DNA of 64,000 nt from an uncultured Candidatus Saccharibacteria bacterium (GCA_964574655.1 CAZNOH010000003.1:58149-122148); one strand, 5' to 3'; numbered from the stretch's first letter, positions 20,984 through 63,889 are shown. Numbers and translations: made by a program. Notes: generated by a model not told the origin, from the letters alone.

Positions 20984-21364
20984 CTATTTATTTAGCTGGG
21001 AAACACAAGGAACATCATCATCAACAAATTGTTCAAGATCAAAACTAAGTTGTCCAAATTTGAAACGCAGTGACACAAAGTAACCAGTCTCTGCATCTTC
21101 ATAGGCTGTCATTGCCCAAAAAATTCGCCGATATCGACCATAATCATCATAAAAATAGACATCTGGACCATATTCCATTGCTTCTGCAAGCGACACTTCT
21201 TTCAACTCATCTATTTGAACCCATCCGCCAGGAGAATCATCATTAGCTACAAAAGAATACTTTTTCATTTCAACAACAAGATATCTTGCTTTGACAACTT
21301 TGTTATTTTTGATCCAACAAGGCTTGATAATCAAAGCTTTTACTGTTTGCTCGATTATCATCAC
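20984..21364 (-). CDS. Hypothetical protein (strong GGAGG RBS)
   Basis: ORF preceded by AGGAGGAAGTG-ATG. Followed by terminator hairpin at 20958-20990 (minus strand). Confidence 0.45.
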   Translation of the reverse strand: MMIIEQTVKALIIKPCWIKNNKVVKARYLVVEMKKYSFVANDDSPGGWVQIDELKEVSLAEAMEYGPDVYFYDDYGRYRRIFWAMTAYEDAETGYFVSLRFKFGQLSFDLEQFVDDDVPCVSQLNK

Positions 21365-21558
21365 TTCCTCCTCTTTCCTCTCAAAGAACTAACATTAAAA
21401 GGCATTCGATAAACAATTATAAACTTAAAAAAACATTTTGTCAAGTCAAATTCATCTTGTAAAAACTCTCTCCTATGTTAAAATATCAGCATATTAAAAA
21501 TTTTAAATCAGCGTAGATCAGCGTTAGAAATCAGCGTCAAATCAGCGCTTGTTATCAT

Positions 21559-24051
21559 ATGTTAAAAAAATACAACATTTTAGAACAGGAACAAAAATGG
21601 CAGAATTTTTGGGATCAAAACAATATTTACAAATATGATCCCTTTTCAAAAAAGCCAATTTTCTCAGTTGATACTCCTCCACCATACGCATCTGCCGCCC
21701 ATCTTCATGTTGGCCATGCCATGTCTTATACTCAAGCCGAATTCATCATCCGTTTCAAACGCATGCAAGGCTATAATGTTTTTTATCCAATGGGTTTTGA
21801 TGACAATGGCTTGCCAACTGAAAGATACGTTGAACAAAAATACAAAATTGCTGACAAAACCAAAATTTCCCGCGAAGAATTTATCAAATTATGTTTGCAA
21901 GAAACCAAAGAAGTTGCCAAAACTTATACTTCTCTTTGGAAATCATTAGGCCTTTCAGTTGATTGGTCATTGCTATATTCGACAATTAGTTCAATGTCTC
22001 GCCGTATTTCTCAAAAATCTTTTTTAGATTTATACAAAAAAGACTTGTTAGAACATCGCCAAGAACCAACAATCTGGTGTCCTTCCTGCCAAACAGCATT
22101 GGCCCAAGCTGATCTTGAAGATTCAGAAGAAAAATCCACACTAAATTATATAACGTTCAAACTTAAACACAGAAACACAGAAACACAGAAACATTCTGAC
22201 GCTCCGACGCTCCAAAGCTCCGAAGCTCTCATTGTTGCCACTTCCAGACCAGAATTACTACCAGCTTGTGTCGCCTTATATATCAATCCAGACGACAAAC
22301 GCTACCAAAGATTAATAAATCAAACTGCCATTGTTCCATTATTTAATTATGAAATCGAAATCAAATCTGACCCTTCTGTTGATCCAAAATTTGGCACTGG
22401 CTTAATGATGGTTTGTACTTGGGGCGATTCTGAAGATGTTGCCAAATGGAAAAAAGATCAACTTTCAACCAGACTGATCTTTGATAAATCAGGACACTTA
22501 AATGAAAAAGCAAAACCTTATCAAGGCTTAGCTATTAAAATCGCTCGTATTAAAATTTTAGAAGATTTAAAAAATAAAAATTTATTAATTAAGCAAGAAG
22601 ACATTACTCATGTTTTAAACATCCACGAACGCTGCAAAACTCCAGTTGAATTTTATTTAACAAAACAATGGTTTATTAAAATTCTTGATAATATAGAAGA
22701 TTTCAAAAAACAAGGAGACAAAATAAACTGGTATCCGGTATCAATGAAAAAGAAATATGATACTTGGCTAGATGGATTAAAATGGGATTGGAATATTTCA
22801 AGAGAAAGATATTATGGCGTTCCGTTTCCAGTTTGGTATTGTAGCAAATGTCATGAAACAATTTTGCCAGATGAAAAAGATCTGCCAGTTGATCCAATCG
22901 AAAATGAACCAAAAAATCCTTGCCCAAAATGCCAATCAAATAAATTTATTCCAGAAAAAGATGTCATGGATACTTGGATGACATCATCTTTAACACCTCA
23001 AATCAATTCGCATTGGCAAGAACAAGATGAAAACAAAAAACTTTATCCAATGTCTTTGCGTATTCAAGCTTTTGAAATTATCAGAACTTGGCTTTTTTAT
23101 ACAGTTGTAAAATCTTGGTATCATAAAAAATCTTTACCATGGCAGGATGTCATGATTTCAGGACACGGACTAGACGAACAAGGACGCAAGATTTCCAAAT
23201 CATTAGGAAATTATGAACCAGTTAATAACATCATAAAGCGTTATGGTTCTGATGCACTTAGATATTGGTCTGCAGGATCAAATCTTGGCAATAATTTAAG
23301 ATATAAGGAAGAAGAAGTTAAAGACGGCAAAAAATTAATTACCAAACTTTTCAACGCCAGCAAATTCGGCTTGATGTTCTTAAATAAGAATTCAGAATTG
23401 AGAATTGAGAATAGAGAATTTTCACCTATCGACATTTGGATTTTATCAAAACTACAAGATACAATTAAAAAAGTTACGCAATATTTCAATGATTACGAAT
23501 ACTCGAAAGCAAAGAAGGAAGTCTACAATTTCTTTTGGAAAAATTTTGCTGATAACTATATTGAGCTTGCCAAATCAAGACTCTATAATGATGAAAATAA
23601 GGAAGCTAAACAATCAGCTCAAGCAACACTTTATATTTGCTTAATAAATATTTTAAAAATGTTTGCACCAATCCTTCCACATATTACTGAAGAAATCTGG
23701 CAAGCGATAAAACAATTAAACAATGAAACAAAAAAACAATTTAACAATTTAACAATTGAACAATCAATCCACATCAGTTCTTGGCCAAAACAAGAAAACA
23801 AATTTATCAACAAAAAAATGGAATTACTTGGTGATTCTATTGTAGAAATTTTAAGTTTAGTTCGAAAAACAAAATCAAATGCCAATCTGGCAATGAATAA
23901 AGATATTAAAGAAATAATTATTGACTCTAAAGAAAAAGATTTAGAAAAATTCTTTCCAGATCTAGCCTCAGCCACTCATGCAGAGCAAATTTCTTTCGGA
24001 ACTGGTGATCAAAATATTGATGATAATCTGAAAATAAAAATTATTTTATAA
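21559..24051 (+). CDS. valS: Valyl-tRNA synthetase (class I aaRS)
   Basis: PPPYASAAHLHVGHA (HIGH-type), RFKRMQGYNV, VDPKFGTG, WCPSCQTAL, DWNISRERYYGVPFPVWYC, KISKSLGN (KMSKS). Best match to the ValRS pattern but IleRS/LeuRS not fully excluded. Carries two in-frame tandem-repeat insertions. Confidence 0.7.
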   Translation: MLKKYNILEQEQKWQNFWDQNNIYKYDPFSKKPIFSVDTPPPYASAAHLHVGHAMSYTQAEFIIRFKRMQGYNVFYPMGFDDNGLPTERYVEQKYKIADKTKISREEFIKLCLQETKEVAKTYTSLWKSLGLSVDWSLLYSTISSMSRRISQKSFLDLYKKDLLEHRQEPTIWCPSCQTALAQADLEDSEEKSTLNYITFKLKHRNTETQKHSDAPTLQSSEALIVATSRPELLPACVALYINPDDKRYQRLINQTAIVPLFNYEIEIKSDPSVDPKFGTGLMMVCTWGDSEDVAKWKKDQLSTRLIFDKSGHLNEKAKPYQGLAIKIARIKILEDLKNKNLLIKQEDITHVLNIHERCKTPVEFYLTKQWFIKILDNIEDFKKQGDKINWYPVSMKKKYDTWLDGLKWDWNISRERYYGVPFPVWYCSKCHETILPDEKDLPVDPIENEPKNPCPKCQSNKFIPEKDVMDTWMTSSLTPQINSHWQEQDENKKLYPMSLRIQAFEIIRTWLFYTVVKSWYHKKSLPWQDVMISGHGLDEQGRKISKSLGNYEPVNNIIKRYGSDALRYWSAGSNLGNNLRYKEEEVKDGKKLITKLFNASKFGLMFLNKNSELRIENREFSPIDIWILSKLQDTIKKVTQYFNDYEYSKAKKEVYNFFWKNFADNYIELAKSRLYNDENKEAKQSAQATLYICLINILKMFAPILPHITEEIWQAIKQLNNETKKQFNNLTIEQSIHISSWPKQENKFINKKMELLGDSIVEILSLVRKTKSNANLAMNKDIKEIIIDSKEKDLEKFFPDLASATHAEQISFGTGDQNIDDNLKIKIIL

Positions 24052-24087
24052 AAATAAATCACGTAGGGGTGGAGTCTCTGAATTATT

Positions 24088-24120
24088 AATAACAAAAAGA
24101 CCGCTCATCGCGGTCTTTTT
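24088..24120. terminator. Bidirectional rho-independent terminator (aaaaagaccgctcatcgcggtcttttt)
   Basis: GC-rich hairpin flanked by A-run and T-run, directly after the valS stop. Confidence 0.7.
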
Positions 24121-24192
24121 AAATCAATATTTTGAGGTTTAAAATTTCAAGCGTTCAAGAACTTAAGAATCAAGGATTCGAATTGTCCGCAA

Positions 24193-27177: not shown

Positions 27178-28455
27178 TTATTTCTTTATCTTTTTTATTA
27201 TTCTTTCTACTGCCAACGCATCCGCTCCCATCCTCAAATCAACCTTATATTTCTCACTCATCTTCCAAACATCGGCAAAAGATTTTTTCATTGTCTTTTC
27301 TAGCTTTTTATTTACATCAACAAGACTCCAATATTTTCCATCCATATTTTGTAACCATTCAAAATAAGAAACGGTCACGCCTCCAGCATTTGCCAAAATA
27401 TCAGGAATTACCACTTTTTTCTTTTTAAACAAAATTCTGTCAGCATCAGGAGTTGTTGGACCATTTGCCATTTCCAAAATAATATTAGCTTTTATTCTAT
27501 TGGCGTTATCTTTCGTAATTTGATTTTCAATAGCTGCTGGCACTAGAACATCAACATCTAATTCTAACAATTCCGCATTTGTAATCTTCTGTGTATCAAC
27601 TAGACCACTAACACTACCTGTCTTCTCTTTTTGTTTCATTACCTTCTCAAGATCAATACCATCTTTTTTATACACTCCACTTCTTGAATCAGAAACCGCG
27701 ACAACAACGAACCTTTTGTCTTTAGAAATAATTTCCGCAATATTATATCCTACATTTCCAACACCTTGCACTGCAACAGTTATTTTTTCATTTGCTTTAA
27801 TCTTTTTCAACGCCTCGTTTAATGTAAAATATCCGCCTAAAGCAGTTGCTTCCGTTCTCCCCAAAGATCCGCCCTTAGATATTGGCTTTCCAGTAAAAGT
27901 TGGTAGCCACTCATTATCAGCGATTTTTGAATTTTTACTTGTAGCTTTTACCTTTTTACTTTTAACTTTTAACTTTTTAAATTCATCGCTCATCCATGCC
28001 ATTATTTCCGGAGTTGTATTTACATCAGGTGCTGGAATATCCTTATTTGGTCCGATACAATCAAAAATTGCCTTAACATAACCTCTTGATAAATTTTCCA
28101 ATTCTTTTTTTGATAATTTTTTTGGATCAACAATTACTCCGCCTTTTCCACCGCCCAAAGGAATGTTTGCAACTGCGCATTTCATTGCCATCCAAAAAGA
28201 CAAAGCTTTTACTTCAAAATCAGAAACTTCCTGATGAAATCTAATACCGCCTTTATACGGGCCTCTTGCAGAATTATATTGCATTCTAAATCCTTGAAAC
28301 ATCCTAATCTTTCCATCATCCATTTTCACTGGGAAATTAACATAAACTGCTCTTTCTGGTTTTGATAAAATTTCCAAATAGGTTTTATCCAACTTCATCA
28401 AATCAGCTACTCTCCCAAGCTGAACTAATGCATTCTCAAAAACATTTTCAGACAT
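27178..28455 (-). CDS. gdhA: NAD(P)-specific glutamate dehydrogenase
   Basis: KGGIRFH, GGGKGG, GVGNVG Rossmann motif. Contains an in-frame insertion (KKLKVKSKKVKATSKNSKIADNE) encoded by a copy of the dispersed TTTTTACTTTT-type motif. Confidence 0.9.
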   Translation of the reverse strand: MSENVFENALVQLGRVADLMKLDKTYLEILSKPERAVYVNFPVKMDDGKIRMFQGFRMQYNSARGPYKGGIRFHQEVSDFEVKALSFWMAMKCAVANIPLGGGKGGVIVDPKKLSKKELENLSRGYVKAIFDCIGPNKDIPAPDVNTTPEIMAWMSDEFKKLKVKSKKVKATSKNSKIADNEWLPTFTGKPISKGGSLGRTEATALGGYFTLNEALKKIKANEKITVAVQGVGNVGYNIAEIISKDKRFVVVAVSDSRSGVYKKDGIDLEKVMKQKEKTGSVSGLVDTQKITNAELLELDVDVLVPAAIENQITKDNANRIKANIILEMANGPTTPDADRILFKKKKVVIPDILANAGGVTVSYFEWLQNMDGKYWSLVDVNKKLEKTMKKSFADVWKMSEKYKVDLRMGADALAVERIIKKIKK

Positions 28456-28528
28456 ATTGCTTTAGTTAATTAGTTAATTAGTTAATTAGTTTATTAGTAA
28501 TTAGGTAACAATGGAACAATTTAACAAT

Positions 28529-30469: not shown

Positions 30470-32857
30470 TTATACTGATTCACAAAGTGCATTTAAACCT
30501 CTTACTAAATCAACATAGCGTGCATATTCTTTAATTGCCCTATACTGGCTCTCTCCATCCAATCCTGCTTCTTTCAAAACCATTGCTGCCTGCCCACTGC
30601 CCAAATAATGCCCCTTTTTAAAAGGATGCAAGGTAACCAATCTACCCGATATTGACATTATCCATCTATCCATTGTTGGCTTTGTAAACCCAGTAACACC
30701 CATTGCAAAAGAAGCAACTCTTTCTGGAAAAATCTGTTCCTGAACTTCCAAATCAAGCCTGGCAAAAAGTTCTGCTGAAGCAACATAATAAACATTCGGA
30801 TCAATACCATCTGCCAAAAGCCTTGGCAAAGTGTCAACCACAAAAGCATATGTCACTCCGCTTTCCTGCAAAATGATATTAACATCTGGCTTATTATTTG
30901 TTGCCTTCCGCAATAAATAAACGCCATTAATTGACTCTTCAAATCCTGACAATCCAAGTGCTTTTCGATCCAGCACTTTCTTTGGCGGACGAGTTACAAA
31001 GATTGCAATAATTGCCGGCCAAAGCGATAAAGCTTTTGCCAGCAATGGCCAAATTTCCTGAGGCTCCCAAGGAGTCAAGGTGATCATCGTATCACCAGGG
31101 AAATTCTCTTGCAACAATTGCAAGGCCTGAACATCAGCATGAGTTGGACCATCTTCTCCGGTTTCCAATCCAGCATGTCCACAAACCAAAATAAAAGGAT
31201 TATATGACTGACCTGTTACTACCTTTTTCGCCTGCTGACCAATTGCATGCAACCTTGCTGCAATATGTCCAAGCGGTGCCATAAAAGCAGCATATGACCC
31301 GCCAACACCAATATGATGGCCATTGGCTGACAGTCCTGCTAGAATTGCAGACATTGCATCTTCACAAATCCCACCTGTCGAAAGCTTCCTTGAATCAGGA
31401 TTCCTTTCAGCATGGAAAAATCCATCAGGAAATCCATTTCCAATATTTCCAACACTGACTGAATCCAAGAGATCAGCAGCTGCACAAAGAATTGCTCCAT
31501 AACTTCCTCTATTCAGGAAGTTCAAAGCATCCCCTAAAACACCTCGCAAAGTTACATCATTGCCCGGCGTCAAAATCAAAGATTCTGGAGTATCGCCTTC
31601 TAACAAATCAATTGCTCCGTAGACATTACCAATTTCTGGAGCAAAAATTTTCTTTTCTCTACCATCTTCATTCAAACACGTCTGCGCAATTACCAAATCA
31701 TTCGACAATCTTTTTATTATTTCATAATTACTAATTTCCATCGCCGAACGAATACTTAACAATGCTTGTGCATAACACACTTCAATCCTTTCCTGATCAC
31801 TACCACTTTGGCACAAATTTTCACCAAAGCAGTTTGGCAAAGAAATAACACCTAATTCACGAAGCTCTTCTGTCGCTTCATAAAATCCCGAAGTGCAAAG
31901 CTTGTGGCCTGCACCATGAGATTTTTTGCCAGTAATTCCATATTTGTAACCTTTTTCAGTTCGATAGACAATCATTGTCGGTTGACCATTCTCCCTGTCT
32001 CCCAAAATAGCAAAAGCAGCATTAACTTGTGTAAAGCTCATGCCATCAGGTACATAGATTACGTTCCAATCATGAAGCTGTCCTAACTCCATTGGAGTCC
32101 ATTGGACATAATCGCCAAATTGATCATCTTCTGCACAAACTCGATCCGAATCAATTGATGACTGATTCCAATCAACATGCAAAACAATATTGCTAAGACC
32201 CATTGCTGACGCAGCTGCCATAGCTTCAGAAACACGACCAGGAGTAAGTCCTCCCTCGCCTTCCAAAATATGGACTTTTGGTGCTTTTTCTTTTCCATAG
32301 TAATCGATTCTACCCAAAGCCAAACCAACAGCTGTAGCCAATCCCACTCCCGAAGCACCAGTCGCAATCCTTACAAACGGTGTTGCTGGCGTTGAATGTC
32401 CATCAAGCGCTCTTGCCCTGTATTGCTTAAACAATGGCAAATCAGTTTCAGGATTTCGCCTGAATCCCAACAAATCTTCTAATCGCAATCTGTCCTTCAT
32501 ATCCTCTGGCAATAAATGACTTGCCCCAATTCGAACAACCTCATCCATCAAAGCTAAGGCTGTATAGAGTCCCAAAGCCTTATGACCTGCAGCTTCTACC
32601 CAAACATCAGCATCTTCTCGATTTGGATTTGAAATATCAAAATACAAACCATGATACAACAGATAATTACGAATTACGCCAGAAGAAATTGATCCTCCAG
32701 GATGACCCGAAGTTGGCACAAAGTTGTACAAAATTGCACACAAGCTTCTATACAACTTGAACAGAAATTCCAGATCAGAAAAAGTTGAAGGACCTAAGAG
32801 CTGTCCGTTTTTCACTAGCTTTCCAACATCATGATAACTGCTTCTTCGCTGACTCAT
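30470..32857 (-). CDS. tkt: Transketolase-family thiamine-diphosphate enzyme (long form)
   Basis: GHPGGSISSG, AAGHKALGLYTALAL, EGEGGLTPGRVSEA, GEDGPTHADVQALQ. Strong GGAGGG RBS and higher GC than neighbours. Confidence 0.65.
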   Translation of the reverse strand: MSQRRSSYHDVGKLVKNGQLLGPSTFSDLEFLFKLYRSLCAILYNFVPTSGHPGGSISSGVIRNYLLYHGLYFDISNPNREDADVWVEAAGHKALGLYTALALMDEVVRIGASHLLPEDMKDRLRLEDLLGFRRNPETDLPLFKQYRARALDGHSTPATPFVRIATGASGVGLATAVGLALGRIDYYGKEKAPKVHILEGEGGLTPGRVSEAMAAASAMGLSNIVLHVDWNQSSIDSDRVCAEDDQFGDYVQWTPMELGQLHDWNVIYVPDGMSFTQVNAAFAILGDRENGQPTMIVYRTEKGYKYGITGKKSHGAGHKLCTSGFYEATEELRELGVISLPNCFGENLCQSGSDQERIEVCYAQALLSIRSAMEISNYEIIKRLSNDLVIAQTCLNEDGREKKIFAPEIGNVYGAIDLLEGDTPESLILTPGNDVTLRGVLGDALNFLNRGSYGAILCAAADLLDSVSVGNIGNGFPDGFFHAERNPDSRKLSTGGICEDAMSAILAGLSANGHHIGVGGSYAAFMAPLGHIAARLHAIGQQAKKVVTGQSYNPFILVCGHAGLETGEDGPTHADVQALQLLQENFPGDTMITLTPWEPQEIWPLLAKALSLWPAIIAIFVTRPPKKVLDRKALGLSGFEESINGVYLLRKATNNKPDVNIILQESGVTYAFVVDTLPRLLADGIDPNVYYVASAELFARLDLEVQEQIFPERVASFAMGVTGFTKPTMDRWIMSISGRLVTLHPFKKGHYLGSGQAAMVLKEAGLDGESQYRAIKEYARYVDLVRGLNALCESV

Positions 32858-32899
32858 CTGTCTTCCCTCCTTTTTTGTGGGGATCTAATCAATAAATTT

Positions 32900-34201
32900 C
32901 TAGTACAACCGACCGCCACTTGCAACATAATCAGAAAAACCATTTACATCAAAAGCAGCTCTTCTTATTCTTTCCACTGCCAACTTCAACTCGTCCATGC
33001 TAGTTGCAAAAGAAATCCGCAAGAAATGCGAGTCTTCAACGCCAATGCTTCCAAATGATTTTCGATCCATTGTTGCTACTCCATAACAATACAGCAAGAA
33101 CATTTGTAACAAAGTTGAAGGACTGGTTTTGCACCTCTCAACTTCCGGCAATCCATTATAGATCTTGATGATACCAAGATGATGACAAAGACTTTCCACA
33201 GCCGGAAAAACATAAAACGCTCCACCAGGATTTTGACAAGCAATTCCAGAAATTCGATTCAAAGCAGGAACAATAAAATCTCTCCGCCTTTGGAATTCCG
33301 CAACCATTCTTGCCAATTCAAGTTTGCTTCTTCTATCTTCCAAAGCAACTTGCGCTCCCATTTGCGTAAAAGCTGGCACGCAAGAAAAGAAATTAATATT
33401 GAACATCTTAAACATTCGCGCCTCTTCAACTGTTGGAAATATTGCCCATCCAACTCTGCCTCCAGTCCAAGCATATGACTTGGAAACTCCTGAAACAATA
33501 ATTGTCAATTTTTCCATTCCAGGAACCGAAGCGATTGAAAAATGATGCCTACCATCAAACAGAATATCTTCATAAACTTCATCAGAATAAACTCTGATAT
33601 CATTTCGCCCTAGACCCAATATAGCTTCCGCTATGTGTGTCAATTGTTCCTGAGTCGCTACTCCGCCAGTCGGATTGGAAGGAAAATTCAGAATAACCAA
33701 CTTTGTTTTTGCATTCATCTGCAAAGACAATTGCTGACCAGAAAAAGTAAATTCATCCCTCGGATTCAAATACAATGCTCGAGGAATTGCTCCGACAAAT
33801 CTTATAAAAGATTCATAAATCGGAAATCCAGGACTTGGATAGACAACTTCTTCACCAGAATTGCAATAAACCATCTCACAAAAACCAATCGGCGGTTTTG
33901 CACCAGGAAAAACAACCACTTGATCAGGACTGATTTTTAAACCGCGCCTTAAACCCATTGTTCTTGCAATTGCTTGACGCAAAGACAAAATCCCTTGCGG
34001 ATCACAATAATGAGTCATTCCCTTATCAATCGCATCCTTCACTGCATTTCGAATATACTCAGGAACTTCGAAATCCGGCTCGCCCAAATTGCATCTGATA
34101 ACTCTCATTCCTAATTTTGTTTCTGCTTCTGCAATATATGGTCCAACTTTGAAAGCATTCTCAGTACCCAAGTCATAACATCTTTGTGCAAACAGTTTCA
34201 T
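32900..34201 (-). CDS. Class I/II pyridoxal-phosphate aminotransferase (aspartate/aromatic type)
   Basis: SKSYAWTGGRVGW PLP-lysine motif, NPTGG. Start trimmed to ATG 34199-34201 preceded by AAAGGGAGGGG. Confidence 0.8.
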   Translation of the reverse strand: MKLFAQRCYDLGTENAFKVGPYIAEAETKLGMRVIRCNLGEPDFEVPEYIRNAVKDAIDKGMTHYCDPQGILSLRQAIARTMGLRRGLKISPDQVVVFPGAKPPIGFCEMVYCNSGEEVVYPSPGFPIYESFIRFVGAIPRALYLNPRDEFTFSGQQLSLQMNAKTKLVILNFPSNPTGGVATQEQLTHIAEAILGLGRNDIRVYSDEVYEDILFDGRHHFSIASVPGMEKLTIIVSGVSKSYAWTGGRVGWAIFPTVEEARMFKMFNINFFSCVPAFTQMGAQVALEDRRSKLELARMVAEFQRRRDFIVPALNRISGIACQNPGGAFYVFPAVESLCHHLGIIKIYNGLPEVERCKTSPSTLLQMFLLYCYGVATMDRKSFGSIGVEDSHFLRISFATSMDELKLAVERIRRAAFDVNGFSDYVASGGRLY

Positions 34202-34395
34202 CTCTCCCCTCCCTTTTTGTCTCGGGTTTTTTAAACCCTTGGCTGCTTCGTCTCTTTTAGATACCACAAATTTTAAAAGAACCTGCCTAATCATACATCA
34301 TTAGATTCTAATATATTACACCATCATAAGTCAATTAATCTGTGGATTATTCTCAAAAATCTTGCTATCATAAATTTAGTTTTAATAATGTAGCA

Positions 34396-36075: not shown

Positions 36076-36135
36076 AAATTTTTATTTTTTACTTGCAACT
36101 TTTTACTTTTTAATTTTGACTTTTAATTTTTTCAA

Positions 36136-40079: not shown

Positions 40080-40158
40080 TATTTGCCAAAACAAGAATTC
40101 ATTGCTACAATAATTAATCCAAAAACACCCGCACCTTCCCAAAAAAAGGAGGAATTAA

Positions 40159-41250
40159 ATGCCACAAAGAAGCTATGAAAATAGTCAACCTATTGATACT
40201 TATACTTGGCAAGAATGCAAGGACTTAATTGATAGAGTAGCAAGAGATATCAAAAATAGTGGTTTCTCTCCCAATCAAGGATTTTGCATTGCCCGAGGCA
40301 GTGTAATTTTCGGTTATGGATTAGCAATCAAACTCGATATTCCTATGGCAATTCTAGCTGCTGAAAGTTACAGAGCCAAAGATCCTTCAGCCACGATAGA
40401 AAGTCCTTCTGCTGAAATTACATTCAGCCGAGAAATAGCTATCACTCAACAATTTATCGGCAATCGCGCTCTCTTGCTTGACGACTTGACAGAAAGAGGA
40501 TTAACGCTAGACCTTGGAAAAGATTTTATTCAATGCCGTTATCCCAATGAACCAGATGAAACAAATAGGATTGAAAAAATAAGAACTGCAACTATCTGGC
40601 ACAAAAATCTCTGCCAAGCACCAGATTTTTTTGCAAAGTCAGTCCAACCTGATGAACAAACCGGTCTTCTACCATACATTGTCCAACCGCACGAATTATT
40701 TGGCCCGCATGATCTAGAGAGAACGATCGAAATCTGTCCCATCCTCCCCAACGCAGATATTTTTAGAACCTGGGAACCTTACACAAATGATATTGTCAAA
40801 ATGGTACAGCTTGCAATTCAGTTAACTCACAAAAAAGGTATCAAAATCAATCAAATTATTGCCCTTACCTCCGGTGGAGTCATTCCAGGCATTCTTGCAA
40901 CAAGAATCTTGGATGCTTATTATGCAATTCTTGCTGCCAAAGATCTTTCAAGCTTGGGCATTCCAGATCATGTTCCATTTGCAAGAGACCTAGTCAAAAC
41001 CTCCAGAGTTCTAGGAAATCATGTTCTCGTTGTTGATGATCGCACTTGGACGCCAACCACTTTGCAACACAGCCTCAAATGGCTCAATAAACAATATGGC
41101 TGGGCCATCAAATCTTTGCATACCGCTGTTATCTATCAAGGCCCAAATGGTTTTCCTGTTGATATCGCAGTTCACAAAGTCCAACCACTCGCCAATGGCA
41201 AAATGCCAAATCTCACTCAACCAATGAAGTCCGAATTCCAGCCCCTCTAG
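40159..41250 (+). CDS. Protein with two tandem type-I phosphoribosyltransferase-like domains
   Basis: Two PRPP-binding-like motifs (ALLLDDLTERGLTLD and HVLVVDDRTWTPTTL). Strong AAGGAGG RBS and higher GC. Confidence 0.5.
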   Translation: MPQRSYENSQPIDTYTWQECKDLIDRVARDIKNSGFSPNQGFCIARGSVIFGYGLAIKLDIPMAILAAESYRAKDPSATIESPSAEITFSREIAITQQFIGNRALLLDDLTERGLTLDLGKDFIQCRYPNEPDETNRIEKIRTATIWHKNLCQAPDFFAKSVQPDEQTGLLPYIVQPHELFGPHDLERTIEICPILPNADIFRTWEPYTNDIVKMVQLAIQLTHKKGIKINQIIALTSGGVIPGILATRILDAYYAILAAKDLSSLGIPDHVPFARDLVKTSRVLGNHVLVVDDRTWTPTTLQHSLKWLNKQYGWAIKSLHTAVIYQGPNGFPVDIAVHKVQPLANGKMPNLTQPMKSEFQPL

Positions 41251-41271
41251 CAAGGAAGGAGAGAGAAAAGA

Positions 41272-42090
41272 ATGAAAAGAGCGCCAAAGCCTGAAGTATT
41301 GTTTCATCTCGCAGTAGACATCAATCAACCTTTCCCAAAAGACGTTTTGATCTGTGGCGATCCCAATCGAGTCAATTTAATGCTTGAAAAATTCTCTACC
41401 GGAACAATTGTCACTGATCCCAAAAAAGATCGAGGCCTAAGGATTGCTACTGGCACAATTGCCTGTCCTGAATTTCCAAAACATCCATTAGAAATTGCTG
41501 CCGTTGGTTGTGGCATGGGTGGACCGACAACTGCTATTGTTGTCGAAGAATTAATTCACCTTGATATTGAGCGTTGTATTAGAGTCGGAACTTGTGGGCT
41601 CTTGGACAAAAGACTGCAACTTCATGACCTTATTTTATCTCAAGCAGCCTATCGTGGCGATGCCACTGGCGATGACTATACTGGCTGTCTAGGCAAAGCT
41701 TTTCCTGCTGTTTCAAGTTATGAACTTCTAAAATACGCCGAACAAGCTGCCTGCCAGCTTCAATATCACTTTGCCATCGGTGTTACTGCTCAGATTGCTG
41801 GTTTTTATCCATTCAATTTTCCTGCTTATGCACTTGATGATACCAACACCAAGAAAAAACAAGCCTTGATTGACATGGATTGTCTGGCATTGTCTATGGA
41901 AGAAGACACAATTGATCTTCTTGCTCAATTGAGAAGAATCCTAGTATTGTCAATTCTTGCTGCGACTGACGTTGCTTATGAATGCCAAGAAAAACATATT
42001 GACGGACCAGGTGTTAACAATGCAATCGATACCGCAATTCAAACGCTCCTTAACATGCACATTTATAGACTAAGAAAAAAATTAGCCTAA
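41272..42090 (+). CDS. PNP/UDP-family nucleoside phosphorylase-like protein
   Basis: ILICGDPNRVNLM and RVGTCGLL motifs of the PNP_UDP_1 fold. GGAAGGAGAG RBS. Confidence 0.65.
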   Translation: MKRAPKPEVLFHLAVDINQPFPKDVLICGDPNRVNLMLEKFSTGTIVTDPKKDRGLRIATGTIACPEFPKHPLEIAAVGCGMGGPTTAIVVEELIHLDIERCIRVGTCGLLDKRLQLHDLILSQAAYRGDATGDDYTGCLGKAFPAVSSYELLKYAEQAACQLQYHFAIGVTAQIAGFYPFNFPAYALDDTNTKKKQALIDMDCLALSMEEDTIDLLAQLRRILVLSILAATDVAYECQEKHIDGPGVNNAIDTAIQTLLNMHIYRLRKKLA

Positions 42091-42116
42091 CAGAGTTTTA
42101 CTCTGTTTTTTATTCT
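42091..42116. terminator. Rho-independent terminator (cagagttttactctg + TTTTTT)
   Basis: Seen directly after the stop. Confidence 0.65.
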
Positions 42117-42225
42117 TTACAAATCAAAAAAATCTTGTTATATTATCACATTAAGATTTCAGTAATTTTTTTTAATTTTTACTTGGAACTTTTTACTTTT
42201 TAATTTTTACTTTTACCTTTTAATA

Positions 42226-42501
42226 ATGCAGACTATTAAAGTTATTTTAGACCGATTTTTTGACGATTCAGTTATTCTAATCACTGAATCTGGCAAACAA
42301 ATTTTATGGCCAAAAGAAAAGCTTCCAGAAGAAGCTGAACTCGGCCAGACTTTGCATTTAACTTTAAATTCTAACCAGCCAGCAAAAAATATTTCGGAAA
42401 ATAAATTAATTACTGCAGAATCAAAACAAGACCATATCAAAATCGCCAAAGCAATATTAGAAGAAATATTAAATGGCAGCGAACAAGAAAAAATAGAATA
42501 A
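42226..42501 (+). CDS. Hypothetical small protein
   Basis: ORF preceded by a dispersed TTTTTACTTTT motif copy. No motifs. Confidence 0.35.
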   Translation: MQTIKVILDRFFDDSVILITESGKQILWPKEKLPEEAELGQTLHLTLNSNQPAKNISENKLITAESKQDHIKIAKAILEEILNGSEQEKIE

Positions 42502-42523
42502 GATCAAGACAGGAGGAGAAAAA

Positions 42524-42895
42524 GTGGAACCGCAAGATGGAATTGAAATGTTTGATTTTTCTATAGATCCATCTCAAAGAAGAAAATGGGCAACCGGATT
42601 TTTTCTTGATCCAAAATCACCCCTTTTTTCTAAACATACAGAAATTTGCATTGGCACTCGTGATTCAAAATCACAACCAGAGCCTCTCCATTTTCATCAC
42701 GAAACTCAAGAATTCTATCTTGTTTTTTCTGGACAATTAACTCTCCAGATCCAAAATCAAAAGATAGATCTCTTGCCAATGCAATTGCTTGCTGTCTCGC
42801 CCACAATTCCTCACGCAATAATAGAAGCCACTGATAACACAAAATTTGTCGCCATCAAATCCCCTTCCAAACTCAATGACAAAGTCGTTCTTTAA
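42524..42895 (+). CDS. Cupin-domain protein (GTG start with GGAGGAG RBS)
   Basis: HFHHETQEFYLVFSG and PTIPHAI cupin motifs. Confidence 0.5.
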   Translation: MEPQDGIEMFDFSIDPSQRRKWATGFFLDPKSPLFSKHTEICIGTRDSKSQPEPLHFHHETQEFYLVFSGQLTLQIQNQKIDLLPMQLLAVSPTIPHAIIEATDNTKFVAIKSPSKLNDKVVL

Positions 42896-46080: not shown

Positions 46081-46112
46081 TATTTTTACTTTTTAATTTT
46101 TACTTTTTTAAC

Positions 46113-46861: not shown

Positions 46862-46950
46862 TTTACGCATAAATAAAATAAGCCTTGAAAATATTCAAGG
46901 CTTTTGTTATATTTATATGCAAAATTGACATTGTCATTCCGAAGCCTCAA

Positions 46951-46976
46951 CCGCCTGCCTACCGGCAGGCAGGTGT
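46951..46976. repeat. GC-rich palindrome CGCCTGCCTACCGGCAGGCAGGTG, copy 2
   Basis: Near-identical to 27139-27164. Lies ~125 bp left of the GC-rich island. Confidence 0.5.
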
Positions 46977-47099
46977 CTAATCAATTTCAAATTATAAATT
47001 ATAAAATTAGTTATTAAAAATTGATTAGTAATTAGATATTAGTAATTTTTAGCCATAAAAAAAGACTCCGGTCAACACGACACGAAGTCTAAAACAAAG

Positions 47100-48055
47100 A
47101 ACAAATTTATTTGGGAATTTTAAGAATTGGAGGTAGGCAGAATTGCAGATTGCAGGTAGGTCTTCTAGAAGACGACCGGCACGAACCCATTGGGGTTGTG
47201 CCACTCCGGTCGTTCGCCGATCGCGAACCCGAACGGGTCCTCGAATCGACGATTCTCTTCGTCCTCGATCTCGGGTGCCTTCATAACACAACTGGCCTCA
47301 CGCTTCCCGTTGATGAGCCTGGACCATCCGGACTTGCTCACGGAGCATCGCCGACCCACGCAGTGCTTGCCGCCCTTCACCTCGATCCCCATCTCCAGCA
47401 TGAACTGGATCTGAGTCTCGAAGGTGCTACAACCGTTGTTGTTCCCGTCCTCTCTGTCGCTCTCGCCACCACAGTCCTCCAGCCCCTCTGTCTCCACCTC
47501 ATCTCCCTCCTCTCCCTCGTCGTCCCAGCCACCGATCCAGCAGAACTGCTTGACCGGCTCGTTCTCACGCGACTTCTGGAGCTCGTCCTCCGCCGCCATC
47601 CAACGATCGATCTCCTCCTCCCACTTCTCGAACGTGGAGTCATCGACATCCGAGACCGCACCACGCAACTGCACCTCACGCTCGAGCTCCTTCCGTCGAT
47701 CCTGCTTGATCTGCCACGACGCCTGATAGTTCCGGCTTTTTCCATGTCCACCGATCAGCCGACCCCCACACTTGAGCCTCAAGCTCGAGTACGGAGTACC
47801 GTCGCCATTGTCGAAGCGATGCTTCCCTGTCCCCTCGATCGGCTCACCCCGCACCGGATCCTTCCTCCACTGCGCCACTGCCTTCTTCTTCTCCCTCTCC
47901 TGCTTCTCCCGCTGTTGCCGATAAGAGTCTTCGGTGCTATATTCACTGTCTGCGGACATCTCTCTTTCCCTCCGACCCATCAAAGCTCTGTGCTTGTGGG
48001 CATTTCTCGCCTTTTCCCTAGCGAGTCCCAAGGTTTTCGTACCCAAATATAGATA
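47100..48055. other. Sharply bounded GC-rich island of foreign composition
   Basis: Base composition switches abruptly from AT-rich to strongly GC-rich and back. Long ORFs on both strands, as expected for high-GC DNA. Confidence 0.7.
47165..48046 (-). CDS. High-GC, charged hypothetical protein of foreign (eukaryote- or high-GC-organism-like) origin; function unknown
   Basis: Only frame with protein-like composition (E/D/K/R-rich, G/C at third codon positions). The other island ORFs look like antisense artefacts. No recognisable domain. Confidence 0.35.
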   Translation of the reverse strand: MGTKTLGLAREKARNAHKHRALMGRREREMSADSEYSTEDSYRQQREKQEREKKKAVAQWRKDPVRGEPIEGTGKHRFDNGDGTPYSSLRLKCGGRLIGGHGKSRNYQASWQIKQDRRKELEREVQLRGAVSDVDDSTFEKWEEEIDRWMAAEDELQKSRENEPVKQFCWIGGWDDEGEEGDEVETEGLEDCGGESDREDGNNNGCSTFETQIQFMLEMGIEVKGGKHCVGRRCSVSKSGWSRLINGKREASCVMKAPEIEDEENRRFEDPFGFAIGERPEWHNPNGFVPVVF

Positions 48056-48322
48056 GAACTATCACAAAATATAGCATATTATTGTAGCATTACTAACTAA
48101 TAATGTCAAGACAAAAAACAAACCATCGTTTTTACCTTATTCAAGCCAAAAATATTAGTAATTAAGATATGGAAGATGTCTTGTTCTTCAATCTTGCAAA
48201 CCACTCACTAATTTAGTAAATTTATTATTTTACAAAAATTTAAAAAATTGCTATTATGACTTAATCTATTTTTACCTGCTCCTTGAAAACAAGGAGAGAT
48301 TGTCAAGACAGGAGGGAGAGAA

Positions 48323-49348
48323 ATGCAACTGCCGTTAAACCAAATCGATTTACTTAATACTTTTTCTCCTGAAGAACAACAATTTTTCCAACGTTTTTTT
48401 GTTCGCGATGGACATAGCATACACTTTGCTCCGAATGCATCGATCATTCAAAAAGGTGAAGAACACAATACCCACCTCTATGTTATTGTCTCTGGAACTG
48501 TTCTTGTCAATGTCGCTCGCCGGCGCATCACTCTGGAAACTGGCCGCTGTTTTGGCGAAATCAACTTCTTTGCAAAAAGCGGAAGAACTGCTACTATCAA
48601 TGCCGGACCTTCCGGAGCAATTGTTCTGGTCATCCCGAGAAAACTGTTCGATATCTACATGCTCAATCGTCCTGCTACCGCTCAAGTCGTCATCGAAAAT
48701 CTCGACAGCTTGATTGCAGAAAGACTTGCTCAGATCACCCAATTCTTGAGAAACGAACAAGAAAAACTCAATCAACTCCTCCCAGCAGATGAAGCTAATC
48801 TCCAAAGCAAGGCTTTTATTGGCCAGCTTTCTCAATCACTGCTCAAAGAAACTGTCACATTGTTGGCTGGACTCACTTCTGAAGAAATTGAACAGTTGAA
48901 TCTAGCCTTCAAAATCAAGAGATTCAAACCAAACCAACAATTCATTTTTGAAGGCGAAAGATCCAAAGAACTTTTGCATATTGTTTCCGGAACAGCAATC
49001 GTTCAAGATGTTGTCCGTTTGAATGTCGGCCAAAGTCTTGGCGATATTGCCTTTATTACCGATCTTCCCCGTACTGCCAATGTCTTTGCCGGACCTGTTG
49101 AACTAGAAGTTCGAGTTTTCACTCCTGAAACATTCAAAGAATTTGCCAGTTTCCTGCCATCAACAGCTGGAAAGATCAGACTCAACCTTGCTGAAATTCT
49201 AGCCACCCGCCTCCGTGCCACCCTCGAAATTATTGAAGGCTATCAAGAAAGAATCCATGAAACTGAAGAACAAGAAGAAGAAGAACCTCGCACTTTCACC
49301 GGTCGCCTCTTGCGCACCCTCACCAAGCCAATCAAATTTAATCGTTAG
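48323..49348 (+). CDS. Protein with two tandem cyclic-nucleotide-binding (CAP/PKA-R-type) domains and no obvious effector domain
   Basis: Two CNB cores (RCFGEINFFAKSGRTATINAGPSGAIVLVI and GQSLGDIAFITDLPRTANVFAGPVELEV). GGAGGGAGAG RBS. Confidence 0.7.
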   Translation: MQLPLNQIDLLNTFSPEEQQFFQRFFVRDGHSIHFAPNASIIQKGEEHNTHLYVIVSGTVLVNVARRRITLETGRCFGEINFFAKSGRTATINAGPSGAIVLVIPRKLFDIYMLNRPATAQVVIENLDSLIAERLAQITQFLRNEQEKLNQLLPADEANLQSKAFIGQLSQSLLKETVTLLAGLTSEEIEQLNLAFKIKRFKPNQQFIFEGERSKELLHIVSGTAIVQDVVRLNVGQSLGDIAFITDLPRTANVFAGPVELEVRVFTPETFKEFASFLPSTAGKIRLNLAEILATRLRATLEIIEGYQERIHETEEQEEEEPRTFTGRLLRTLTKPIKFNR

Positions 49349-49378: not shown

Positions 49379-49428
49379 ACAAAAAAATCGCCAGACAGCG
49401 ATACTTTTTACTTTTGCCTTTTTACTTT

Positions 49429-50835
<1,407 letters not shown>

Positions 50836-60072: not shown

Positions 60073-60327
60073 TTAGAATTTTTCAGGAATATTATCAATT
60101 CCTCCCTTGCTCCATGGATTACACCTTAATACTCGCCAGCCAGCCAATAACACGCCTTTACAAATTCCATGTTTTTCAATTACCTGATATCCATATTCTG
60201 AACAAGTCGGATGATATTTGCAAACTCCATATGGAATATAATGAGAAATAAATCCATGGTCAGGAGAAATAGTTTTCTGATAAACTCGAATTAAAAATAA
60301 AAATGGAATTCTTAAATAATACAACAT
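60073..60327 (-). CDS. yidD: Membrane protein insertion efficiency factor YidD
   Basis: YQKTISPDHG...CKYHPTCSEYGYQVIEKHG...CNPWSKGG. Confidence 0.85.
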   Translation of the reverse strand: MLYYLRIPFLFLIRVYQKTISPDHGFISHYIPYGVCKYHPTCSEYGYQVIEKHGICKGVLLAGWRVLRCNPWSKGGIDNIPEKF

Positions 60328-60348
60328 CGAAATTTAATATTTAATATT

Positions 60349-60696: not shown

Positions 60697-60734
60697 AATT
60701 AAAAATTAATGCAAAAGAATTTTTCGCAAGATTG

Positions 60735-60875
60735 CTAAACAGTCAGTCTTTTTCGACCTTTGGCTCTTCTTCTTTTCAATACATTCCTTCCGCCCTTTGT
60801 GCTCATCTTTTTCAAGAAGCCATGAGTTCTAGCTCTTTTTCTCTTTTTCGGTTGATATGTTCTTTTTGTTGCCAT
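60735..60875 (-). CDS. rpmH: 50S ribosomal protein L34 (not in ORF track, <60 aa)
   Basis: Manual translation: [46 protein letters not shown], canonical L34. Confidence 0.85.
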
Positions 60876-60982
60876 ATGTTTTAATTTACCAGAAAAAAAC
60901 TCTTCCGTCAATCCAATTCCGTTGTTGAAGAATCATCAAAATTTTGTTAATATTAGTAAAAGTTTATTTATATCAAAACAAA

Positions 60983-62065: not shown

Positions 62066-62082
62066 ATAATCTTAAAAATACC

Positions 62083-62110
62083 TTAACTAGGTATTTTTTG
62101 ATATAAAAAA
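62083..62110. terminator. Pair of facing terminator hairpins (taccttaactaggta+T-run for plus; aactagattatatctagtt+T-run for minus)
   Basis: Seen directly between convergent genes. Confidence 0.6.
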
Positions 62111-62127
62111 ACTAGATATAATCTAGT

Positions 62128-62427
62128 TCAAGGAACTTTTATTTCTTGTTTCGCCAAAGCAATATTTACTAACACCGAAATCCCTTGTTCAGTAATCCGA
62201 TAATAATTTCTCAAAACCTTAGCATATCTTCCATTGCTCGGTTTTAAATTAATTTGAATATCGCAATGCAGAACCATTTTCATTAACCATTTTCTAATCG
62301 AATATGCGTCTAATCTATTGCCAGAACAAGCTACAATATCATCACAACACATTTCCTCGCCATTTTCATGTAAAACTTCCAAGATCGCTCTTTCTTGCCA
62401 AGAATAATCGCTAGCGTTTTCGCTCAT
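62128..62427 (-). CDS. Hypothetical small protein (possible winged-helix fold), strong RBS
   Basis: GAGGAGGGAAAG upstream of ATG. No motif. Confidence 0.4.
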   Translation of the reverse strand: MSENASDYSWQERAILEVLHENGEEMCCDDIVACSGNRLDAYSIRKWLMKMVLHCDIQINLKPSNGRYAKVLRNYYRITEQGISVLVNIALAKQEIKVP

Positions 62428-62453
62428 CTCAGCTTTCCCTCCTCTTTCTAATT

Positions 62454-62927
62454 TCAGGAAATCGCAGAATTAATTCTGTGATAGAGATACCTAAAACGCA
62501 GAGGCAGATGACTTCTTTTTTGATCTTCCACAAACTGCTTTTTTGCTTCCAAAATAAATCCAGCCCAGCATATAATACTTGGCACATTCAAAAGCCTAAT
62601 CCAATCCATAAGTTCGCTAACAGAAATTCCTACCTTTCGTCTGTCACAAGAAATGTTACGCAAGCCATACCCAATTCCTCTAGCATTATCATTCACACCA
62701 GCAAAATAAACATTTTTCAAATTTTGCGTATCTCGTATAATGCCAAAGCCAATCATTCCGCATGACGAATCCACAGCCTCTGTCCATTCAACAACCAAGA
62801 TAGTTCCAGAGCTTACAATTTCAGTAACCACATCATCTACCAACAATCTCTCCAAAAATTCACGAATTGTCATGTTATACAGACAATTCCTCACCTGTTT
62901 TTCGTTACCGGAAAACATCGTTGCCAT
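62454..62927 (-). CDS. Hypothetical protein (start trimmed to ATG preceded by AAAAGGAGGAGAG)
   Basis: ORF with strong SD before internal MATMFSGNE. No motif. Confidence 0.4.
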   Translation of the reverse strand: MATMFSGNEKQVRNCLYNMTIREFLERLLVDDVVTEIVSSGTILVVEWTEAVDSSCGMIGFGIIRDTQNLKNVYFAGVNDNARGIGYGLRNISCDRRKVGISVSELMDWIRLLNVPSIICWAGFILEAKKQFVEDQKRSHLPLRFRYLYHRINSAIS

Positions 62928-63063
62928 CGTCTCTCCTCCTTTTTTCTGCAGCAAAAATTTTTCAAAGAACATTGTCATAGATTAACTAATTTTTACCAAA
63001 AAGTCAACAATCATTTTCAAAAAAGAATTAAAATAAAAAAAACTAGATCAAATTCAATCTAGT

Positions 63064-63420
63064 TTACGAAATAATTCTGAGGTAAAGATCAGCTACCTCC
63101 TTCAAACGCCTGACAACTTCATCATGAGTGATGCTATTTAATGCCATCTCTCTTGCAACTGTCTCCTCGCTCACAATGTCTCCATCGCTGTCAACTTCAT
63201 CTTGAGGATCCTTAATATGGCAAGTGAAAACCAATCTTGTCCCATTTCTCTTTATCCGATAGTTGCGATCACTTTTGCGAAAAATGACTATCGAACCATT
63301 CCTCGTGATCGAAAAAACAAGATCATCGTTCAACACATTTCTCAAAAACTCCAAGTTGCCATAAGCAAAATTCGCTCTTGCAATTTTGTCTCTCATTTCT
63401 TCAAGGTACGAGTTTGCCAT
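63064..63420 (-). CDS. Hypothetical protein (start trimmed to MANSYLEE preceded by AAAGGAGGAAATA)
   Basis: ORF, strong SD, followed by terminator aaactagat...atctagttt. Weak similarity to the next ORF. Confidence 0.4.
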   Translation of the reverse strand: MANSYLEEMRDKIARANFAYGNLEFLRNVLNDDLVFSITRNGSIVIFRKSDRNYRIKRNGTRLVFTCHIKDPQDEVDSDGDIVSEETVAREMALNSITHDEVVRRLKEVADLYLRIIS

Positions 63421-63526
63421 TATTTCCTCCTTTTGCAACCAGTCTAACTATATTCTAGCTGACCAAAAAAGCTAAAACAATAGCTTTCAACAAAAAAAAC
63501 AAGGCCAAAACCTTGTAAAAAGAACT

Positions 63527-63889
63527 TTACTTTGAAAGATGCTCAAAAATAACTTCAACTGCCTTCAAAATATTTGCTTCACATTTTTCTGTCCACCTTA
63601 CCACATCAGCGATGCTAACCTTTTGTTTACCTCGCTGCTGATCATCATTGTCCTGAACAAACAAGTCAAAGTAAATTTTTCCCTTCTCCTCATAGCAAAC
63701 TACAATTAATCTTTTCAACCCATAAAAAAAGCTATCAATATCAACCGAACAATCAACAATGTATGGAGCCCCCTTGAATCTTGCGATCAGAATTTCATCT
63801 TCCTGAACAAGCCTCAAAAATGCCTGCCAAGACATATCCTTCACAAATTCAAGGACTTCTTCTTTCGTGTTTGAAAACAAAATCGACAT
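63527..63889 (-). CDS. Hypothetical protein, possible paralog of 63064..63420
   Basis: AAAGGAGGCAGCG-ATG. Similar size and pattern (GxRLVFTCHIKD vs GKIYFDLFVQD; VVRRLKEVADLYL vs VVRWTEKCEANILKAVEVIFEHL). Terminator caaggccaaaaccttg downstream. Confidence 0.4.
   Translation of the reverse strand: MSILFSNTKEEVLEFVKDMSWQAFLRLVQEDEILIARFKGAPYIVDCSVDIDSFFYGLKRLIVVCYEEKGKIYFDLFVQDNDDQQRGKQKVSIADVVRWTEKCEANILKAVEVIFEHLSK

Follow-up and report, generated by a model that had tools for sequence, protein, structure and literature searches.

How does a bacterium start translation when most of its genes carry no Shine-Dalgarno (SD) sequence and a minority carries one close to perfection? The question is raised by a stretch of DNA from an uncultured bacterium deposited as Candidatus Saccharibacteria (GCA_964574655.1, CAZNOH010000003.1:58149-122148), below called the window, which comprises 64 kb with about 59 genes at a guanine plus cytosine (GC) content of 33.4%. 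The closest match of the RuvB encoded here is that of the Patescibacteria metagenome-assembled genome (MAG) STF1_73 (93% identity; L001 in our numbering of public loci), followed by Parcubacteria and Falkowbacteria MAGs at 64-65%, with all matches from outside the Candidate Phyla Radiation (CPR) lower, and L001 is furthermore syntenic with 41.1-53.0 kb of the window at a DNA identity of about 80%. Because of these RuvB matches and this synteny the window can be assigned to the chromosome of a CPR bacterium (Patescibacteria, Parcubacteria-like). The ribosomes of this radiation are unusual in that several ribosomal proteins and rRNA segments are missing, and the anti-SD is reportedly absent in some of its lineages.

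The region from -20 to -3 of each candidate start was scored for pairing to a 16S tail with ACCUCCUUA in all 59 gene models. Twelve genes (SD+ in the following, ~20%) reached duplex energies of -8.8 to -12.5 kcal/mol, while the remaining 47 (SD-less, ~80%) lie between -3.3 and +2.6 kcal/mol, and the gap between the two groups is empty. SD strength in the window is bimodal and forms no continuum, which confirms the two initiation classes that an initial annotation had proposed from the sequence alone, together with a gene-by-gene comparison of SD free energy and of GC at third codon positions (GC3) as the means to recognize them. Of the 12 SD+ genes, 11 carry GGAGG and the remaining one GGAGA, the sequence 5' to the motif being A-rich in most cases (AAAGGAGG), and the 11 occurrences of GGAGG near the starts of the 59 genes compare with 0.2 expected by chance. 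The near-consensus motif was placed 6-10 nt upstream of the starts in the initial annotation; the measured spacings, in coordinate order, are 5, 8, 6, 6, 9, 7, 9, 7, 10, 7, 5 and 5 nt and thus extend the range to 5-10 nt. Its list of SD-bearing genes is otherwise correct, but 42226-42501, within the group at 40159-42895, is SD-less, and the open reading frame (ORF) of a GC-rich "foreign island" (47165-47959, minus strand) had been left out even though it is SD+. Nor is the minority scattered, as had been stated, since it falls into five small clusters (20984; 30470-34201; 40159-42895; 47165-49348; 62128-63889 onwards) with six adjacent SD+ pairs (permutation p=0.006). The SD+ genes are the following, with coordinates that include the SD.

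20984..21371, minus strand: gene of 125 aa outside any known family; ATG at 21361, with the SD GGAGG 5 nt upstream (21367-21371).
30470..32870, minus strand: transketolase-like gene of 795 aa, second gene of a cassette; SD AAAAGGAGGG at 32866-32870, 8 nt before the ATG.
32900..34212, minus strand: class I/II aminotransferase of 433 aa, first gene of the cassette, start at 34201; SD GGAGG at 34208-34212, 6 nt before the ATG.
40148..41250, plus strand: tandem phosphoribosyltransferase of 363 aa; SD AAAAGGAGGAA at 40148-40152, 6 nt before the ATG.
41258..42090, plus strand: nucleoside phosphorylase (PNP_UDP_1) of 272 aa; SD AAGGAAGGAGAG with its core at 41258-41262, 9 nt before the ATG.
42512..42895, plus strand: cupin-domain gene of 123 aa with a GTG start; SD CAGGAGGAG at 42512-42516, 7 nt before the GTG.
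47165..47973, minus strand: ORF of the GC-rich island, 264 aa, GC 0.60, GC3 0.77; ATG at 47959, with the SD GGAGG 9 nt upstream (47969-47973).
48311..49348, plus strand: protein of 341 aa with two domains binding cyclic nucleotide monophosphates (cNMP); SD CAGGAGGGAG at 48311-48315, 7 nt before the ATG.
62128..62442, minus strand: small gene of 99 aa outside any known family; SD GAGGAGGG at 62438-62442, 10 nt upstream of the ATG.
62454..62939, minus strand: small gene of 157 aa, start at 62927; SD AAAAGGAGGAG at 62935-62939, 7 nt before the ATG; a 157-aa call on the public contig L037 agrees.
63064..63430, minus strand: small gene of 118 aa, start at 63420; SD AAAAGGAGGAA at 63426-63430, 5 nt upstream of the ATG; a terminator (63493-63516) lies ahead of the gene.
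63527..63899, minus strand: small gene of 120 aa; SD AAAGGAGGC at 63895-63899, 5 nt upstream of the ATG; a terminator (63971-63994) lies ahead of the gene.

Four ORFs had their start moved to the codon proximal to the SD, among the corrected positions being 34201 for the aminotransferase (the first ATG of its ORF is at 34294), 62927 for gene 62454 and 63420 for gene 63064, and for two of the four an independent gene caller run on public contigs gives the same product lengths (157 and 118 aa). The SD-less starts of gap, valS and ruvB are confirmed as well, since the alignments of their products to the start of the respective family models set in at residues 1-14. The leaders of such genes had been described as AT-rich, and this is borne out, positions -13 to -1 being about 90% A+T with 3-8% G and without even a weak SD. 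A occupies position -3 in 50% and position -6 in 53% of the 36 leaders, a small sample, compared to about 45% across the leader. We also considered whether the SD-less class might consist of leaderless transcripts and rejected this, as TATAAT-like boxes do not accumulate about 6-8 nt ahead of the start; clear -10 boxes are found about 40-55 nt upstream of ruvB, hsp20 and gene 175-1920, and because these boxes sit well upstream of the starts the SD-less mRNAs are taken to be leadered.

The two classes differ in composition too. SD-bearing genes are less AT-rich, in line with the initial annotation, with a GC content of 0.40 vs 0.32 (p=4e-6), a GC3 of 0.31 vs 0.245 (p=2e-5) and a GC at first codon positions of 0.515 vs 0.395, and their proteins are poorer in the residues F, Y, M, I, N and K (FYMINK) and richer in G, A, R and P (GARP) and in Cys, the p-values for GC, first- and third-position GC, FYMINK, GARP and Cys ranging from 4e-6 to 0.016. 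All class differences in composition and in folding persist when the GC-rich island ORF is removed. A Pfam family is missing for six of the 12 SD+ genes; five small SD+ proteins have no family, and the 795-aa protein is a distant relative of transketolase. The SD-less class, on the other hand, holds the housekeeping genes that can be named in the window, that is gap, tsaD, tsaE, valS (of the archaeal-like PRK13208 type), gdh (archaeal-type), pilB, uppP, ruvB, rnpA-yidD-yidC-jag and lgt, many others being unannotated. High expression was considered as a reason for carrying an SD and does not fit, for gap, gdh and hsp20 are SD-less and the SD+ genes are peripheral or without recognised function.

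Comparison with relatives suggests that the SD is kept for a purpose. Its core is retained in every available orthologue of six SD+ gene families, over protein divergences from about 5% to more than 40%, and the neighbouring SD-less genes all stay SD-less. The invariant core is GGAGG (GGAG for the phosphorylase) in the orthologues of the cupin gene, the cNMP-binding protein and the island ORF (L001/L042), of the 125-aa gene (L081) and of the phosphoribosyltransferase and the phosphorylase (L043/L045). The orthologue of the 125-aa gene in L081 is only 53% identical and has nevertheless retained AGAGGAGGA 7 nt before the ATG, and the phosphoribosyltransferase is preceded by GAGGAGGAGGAA in L045 and by GGGAGGG in L043. 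The cupin gene has kept both its SD and its GTG start in L001, while the SDs of the cNMP-binding protein and of the island ORF are kept in L001 and L042. Furthermore, in the 60 nt preceding SD+ genes the window and L001 have an identity of 82-85%, as opposed to 54-75% in the upstream regions of SD-less genes, one at 84% excepted. These comparisons support the notion that SD status is a stable, selected and gene-specific property and that the SD is no decaying relic.

A consequence would be that the host has a present and working anti-SD, its 16S tail being at least CCUCCUUU, and this is favoured because the SDs are conserved in orthologues, because identity upstream of SD+ genes is higher, because the SDs of the cassette are near consensus and because AGGAG (z=-3.5) and GGAGG (z=-2.8) are the most depleted purine pentamers in coding regions relative to synonymous-codon shuffles. 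The window holds neither an rRNA gene nor ribosomal protein genes, and in the related loci no 16S gene was found, just the 5' end of a 23S gene in L002.

With regard to where the SD+ genes come from, the initial annotation had raised the possibility of a horizontally acquired cohort, and for the aminotransferase and the transketolase-like gene this holds. After its own copy (100%) the transketolase-like protein has its best matches at 58-60% identity among more than 4,400 scored homologues, those with an organism name belonging to Thermodesulfobacteriota, Pseudomonadota, Thermoleophilia and Methylomirabilota, and the aminotransferase is 58-61% identical to the gene preceding the transketolase-like gene in L039-L041. 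These nearest homologues reside on non-CPR contigs of 63-70% GC, where, in the two contexts examined, the order aminotransferase-then-transketolase is kept and a molybdopterin oxidoreductase and cytochrome c are neighbours. The matches mark the pair as a transferred two-gene cassette of foreign affinity. Its GC content is 0.40-0.41 compared to 0.62-0.73 for both genes in the nearest homologues, and its SDs are A-flanked consensus sequences, whereas the nearest homologues have GGGGAGG, CGGAGG or none. Since the coding GC is now 0.40-0.41 and the SDs are yet nearer to consensus than those of the nearest homologues, they have been kept or improved in the present host. For the other SD+ genes the claim of acquisition has indirect support from composition, clustering and presence or absence in close relatives, but the cNMP-binding protein, the phosphorylase and the phosphoribosyltransferase have no close homologues outside the lineage that would point to it.

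Indeed, the cNMP-binding protein is matched by its own copy and one relative of 76% identity among 5.8 billion proteins, the phosphorylase by four non-self homologues, and the tandem phosphoribosyltransferase by three full-length representative clusters among 1.84 billion proteins. SD+ genes in general are 34-76% identical to their orthologues, their neighbours mostly 76-93%. In L043 the order PrsW-Hsp20-phosphoribosyltransferase-phosphorylase is maintained with neighbours at 68-74% and both SD+ genes at 52-56%, and because of this synteny the two are taken to be long-term, fast-evolving residents. The phosphoribosyltransferase is just 42% identical between L045 (440-1519) and the window (40159-41250), where the adjacent C-terminus of Hsp20 is more than 90% identical as judged by eye and the phosphorylase 76%, which suggests either allele replacement or a very fast evolution of this single gene. 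The phosphorylase gene is itself missing from L001 as an exact gene-sized difference and is present with its SD in L043, L044 and L045. Similarly, a run of five SD+ genes in L001 and L042 corresponds to two in the window, and the more distant but syntenic L003 has none of them. In the segment concerned (L001 4934-9440, L042 3334-7786, window 46862-48322) the two relatives have a bPH-domain gene separated from the cNMP gene by queA and by three additional SD+ genes of 141, 115 and 263 aa, and all four are missing at that place in the window.

The island at 47111-48052 is the most deviant piece, with a GC content of 0.55-0.60 in a 0.33 genome. Its ORF has no Pfam family, is preceded by a promoter-like TTGACA-17-TACAAT at 48109-48081 and encodes an acidic, low-complexity protein that is hypervariable, being 34% identical to the orthologue in L001/L042 where flanking genes are 76-93% identical; the termini are conserved nonetheless, with GTGKHRFDNGDG near the N-terminus and FEDPxGxxIGERxEWHNPNxFVPV at the C-terminus. 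The four small genes at the right end of the window each have an SD of their own, and the next gene past the window end is weakly SD-like. Two near-identical terminator hairpins (AAAAAAACAAGGCCAAAACCTTGT), 478 nt apart at 63493-63516 and 63971-63994, each lie upstream of one of the two rightmost genes, which together look like a tandem array of self-contained gene units. Paralogy among the small SD+ genes is weak (15-25% identity), and structure prediction gave low confidence (predicted local distance difference test, pLDDT, 57). A phage origin was considered and rejected, since no relative of gene 63527-63889 is present among the viral contigs and nothing among phage genomes matches the island ORF.

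To account for these observations we propose that SD pairing is still used in this host, that core genes are initiated independently of it, and that a flexible and partly foreign gene pool relies on strong SDs, a reading to which we would give a probability of roughly 0.55. The ribosome would still be able to pair its 16S 3' tail with SD sequences, whereas core genes would have moved to SD-independent initiation on leadered, weakly structured start regions of about 90% A+U. Some 20% of the window genes, which are GC-richer, distinct in amino-acid make-up, clustered, fast-evolving and mostly accessory, would rely on strong SDs, and they are probably foreign or belong to a flexible pool with 5' ends unadapted to the SD-free pathway. 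Because of such unadapted 5' ends selection would keep the SDs of these genes, and in the cassette it may have brought them nearer to consensus. That the remaining ten SD+ genes are foreign as well, and that SD dependence stems from less favourable 5' regions, are further parts of the proposal that we infer.

Comparison with genomic islands and acquired genes is instructive here. Atypical GC and amino-acid use, clustering, presence and absence among close relatives and one cassette with non-CPR nearest homologues are all features in common, but neither integrase, transposase, flanking tRNA gene nor direct repeats were found in the window (its single tRNA gene at 9867-9941 adjoins no SD+ cluster), and for several SD+ genes, which are syntenic residents of long standing, no donor outside the lineage can be detected. 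Among other loci, the Parcubacteria relatives L002-L005 and L025 have hardly any SDs, and low-GC, SD-poor loci found by way of ValS (L050, L054, L057) show the same picture as the window, with a few strong-SD genes that as a rule are GC-richer and for the most part lack a Pfam family. L059 was set aside, its SD+ genes being an S-layer protein and a cold-shock protein and the organism probably one of a different kind. In L050, which stems from another metagenome and has a contig GC of 0.40, valS is flanked at 9266-13683 by three genes of 0.53-0.55 GC without Pfam family, two of them with a strong SD and the third (12633-13010) intermediate at -7.9 kcal/mol; one of the SD+ genes is divergent from valS, as is gene 20984 in the window.

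Several points weigh against the proposal. Foreign origin is established for two of the 12 SD+ genes only; no donor is visible for the cNMP-binding protein, the phosphorylase and the phosphoribosyltransferase, and the latter two are syntenic over considerable divergence. Accessory DNA can also be SD-less, seeing that an 8.2-kb block of seven SD-less genes (12745-20980) is absent from the close relative L081, in which tsaD directly abuts the SD+ 125-aa gene and valS. The link to GC is moreover not universal, as the SD+ genes of L006, a genome of 48% GC labelled Saccharibacteria, are GC-poorer than their neighbours (p ~0.04), and because of this "atypical" describes SD+ genes better than "GC-rich". 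The survey of other loci took the best of several candidate starts, which favours SDs in GC-richer genes, and the sample as a whole is small, comprising 64 kb of one genome and short pieces of relatives. Finally, an anti-SD motif was detected in only 48% of Parcubacteria 16S genes (PMC9297842).

The best placed of the alternatives, albeit an unlikely one in our view, is that SD-led mRNAs constitute a dedicated regulatory class, that is a translational regulon of whatever origin which is read preferentially by a subpopulation of ribosomes or under certain conditions, as in Bacteroidia. The gene-specific SD status conserved over long divergence, the sharp on/off distribution without intermediate strengths and the better conserved leaders of SD+ genes all agree with this. 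A precedent exists in Flavobacterium johnsoniae (PMC9976891, PMC13000453), where most mRNAs are likewise leadered and SD-less with A-rich, weakly structured starts and a minority has a strong conserved SD (PMC7797042, PMC9976891, PMC13000453, PMC6847099). In this organism the anti-SD is sequestered by bS21/bS18/bS6 and rpsU is SD-led (PMC7797042, PMC9976891, PMC13000453, PMC6847099), and in Bacteroidia the anti-SD is exposed on ribosomes without bS21, which translate this rpsU mRNA (PMC9976891, PMC13000453); bS21 is furthermore often absent in Parcubacteria (PMC9297842). Bacteroidia however have essentially this one strong-SD gene and not 20%, whereas the 12 of 59 in the window are accessory-type and include no ribosomal protein gene, and a Kozak-like preference for A at -3, a positive determinant in initiation of that type, is not evident in the small sample of 36 leaders. 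In addition, the SD+ genes have no functional theme, comprising enzymes, a cNMP-binding protein and small proteins without family, and no upstream element common to them was seen beyond the SD. Sequestration of the SD, a riboswitch or a thermosensor was considered since CCUCC-like stretches occur upstream in several SD+ leaders, but the pairing probability of the SD is not above that of shuffled controls in 11 of 12, and the window contains no regulatory RNA known to Rfam. A hairpin CTCCTTG-AAAA-CAAGGAG is found at 48277-48294, 16 nt upstream of the SD of the cNMP gene, and is kept in L001 and L042; its 5' arm mimics an anti-SD, and an alternative pairing of this arm with the actual SD is conceivable, although the modelled pairing probability of that SD is not above shuffled controls. 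The distinct regulatory class that the initial annotation had offered as its second option thus holds as far as gene-specific SD status is concerned, conserved as it is in six families with neighbours that stay SD-less, but because neither a shared regulatory element nor systematic SD sequestration was found a regulatory role remains speculative. A bolder version, which we regard as still less likely, is that two separate initiation pathways split the genome, the core being SD-blind and a flexible set of about 20% being gated by SD-anti-SD pairing and tuned jointly through the availability of the 16S tail, for instance by ribosome heterogeneity of the bS21 type. If true, this would extend the one-gene circuit of Bacteroidia to a genome-wide regulon.

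Next in rank, and improbable, is the notion that the SD does no more than compensate for structure, so that any gene with a GC-richer, more structured start region retains it, with composition as the cause, the SD as the consequence and no need for foreign origin. The start regions of SD+ genes do fold more stably, the energy of -30 to +30 being -7.1 compared to -4.5 kcal/mol for SD-less genes (p=0.003), a gap that is partly due to the G-rich SD itself, and positions +4 to +33 are GC-richer (0.38 vs 0.27). That local lack of structure permits initiation without an SD is an established principle, and in cyanobacteria, plastids and other bacteria with mixed SD use there is likewise less structure around the start of SD-less than of SD-led genes (Scharff et al. 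2011, PMC3121790). It also agrees with this notion that the phosphoribosyltransferase and the phosphorylase, though long-term residents, are still GC-richer and SD+. However, equally high GC contents of 0.40-0.41 occur in SD-less genes (14242-15156, 15159-17588, 20108-20821), the SD+ genes of L006 are poorer in GC than their neighbours, and the split in the window, unlike that in the systems of Scharff et al. (PMC3121790), is all-or-none and tracks composition, clustering and evolutionary rate.

It is very improbable that the SDs are non-functional relics, left as GGAGG by recently transferred genes in a host whose ribosome has no anti-SD. Such an explanation could draw on the many Parcubacteria 16S genes in which no anti-SD motif was detected (PMC9297842), on the atypical composition of the SD+ genes and on the foreign cassette. 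The Parcubacteria subgroup for which Tsurumaki et al. (2022, PMC9297842) reported that the anti-SD is lost indeed belongs to the same broad lineage and shares a general scarcity of SDs, but SD helices were suggested not to form there, whereas one gene in five in the window has a conserved SD of consensus strength, which argues for a working anti-SD; that study contains no gene-by-gene SD analysis (PMC9297842). Against relics it can be held that the core is invariant in six of six orthologue comparisons while SD-less upstream regions have diverged by about 25-45%, that the SDs of the cassette are nearer to consensus than those of its homologues even though its coding DNA is at 0.40-0.41 GC, that SD-like pentamers are depleted within genes, and that the cupin gene has kept its GTG together with its SD. 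An artefact, that is wrong start choices or a chimeric metagenome assembly joining the DNA of an SD user to a CPR contig, can practically be dismissed, for although the window comes from a metagenome-assembled genome and SD-proximal starts were chosen for four genes, the SD+/SD-less junctions are seen again in public assemblies made independently from other samples (L001, L037, L038, L042, L043, L045, L081), two of the moved starts are reproduced by an independent gene caller and the N-termini of gap, valS and ruvB fit their family models.

A few further observations concern the SD-less part of the window. The 12745-20980 block includes an 809-aa protein of unknown kind and a class A beta-lactamase-like gene, and successive parts of class A beta-lactamase models are matched by a pair of overlapping ORFs at 17776-18766 (109 and 229 aa), which have the look of a gene that is split or frameshifted. 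The heptamer TTTTTAC forms arrays of about 4-8 copies between genes, often just upstream of SD-less ones, at 4474-4528, 14188-14240, 27925-27979, 36079-36132, 42169-42222, 46083-46108 and 49402-49451, and other tandem repeats are located directly before start codons (TTAGTTAA x6 at 28462-28508; a AATCAGCG-like unit at 21504-21549). Perfect or near-perfect repeats of 7-8 nt are also found within coding regions, in valS (22165-22228, 23710-23764) and in an O-antigen-ligase-like gene (49563-49685, 50178-50208), with units such as ATTCGGA x4.4, CAATTTC x4.7 and AAACAATT x6.9, the length of which is no multiple of three, and these might be slippage-prone sites.

Mixed SD use and SD-free initiation through unstructured starts (PMC3121790), SD-blind ribosomes of Bacteroidia (PMC7797042, PMC9976891, PMC13000453) and the atypical composition of acquired genes are already known. 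On SD use in CPR/Patescibacteria the literature we found is confined to the ribosome survey (PMC9297842), with no gene-by-gene description, and what is new is the combination, in that within a CPR genome the split is all-or-none, the SD status of each gene is conserved and this status is linked to the flexible gene pool. For annotation this means that gene callers with a single initiation model will misplace the starts of one class or the other, and several first-ATG starts of ORFs in the window are wrong. As to the biology of the group, the findings indicate that at least this lineage retains SD-dependent initiation and reserves it for a compositionally distinct, fast-evolving and partly foreign set of genes. 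Should the pattern hold genome-wide, the SD would provide a simple sequence marker by which flexible or acquired genes could be recognized in the genomes of uncultured CPR bacteria, the 3' end of the 16S rRNA would be subject to the concrete prediction made above, and the organism would offer a natural system for studying how newly arrived genes get translated where host genes have dropped their SDs.

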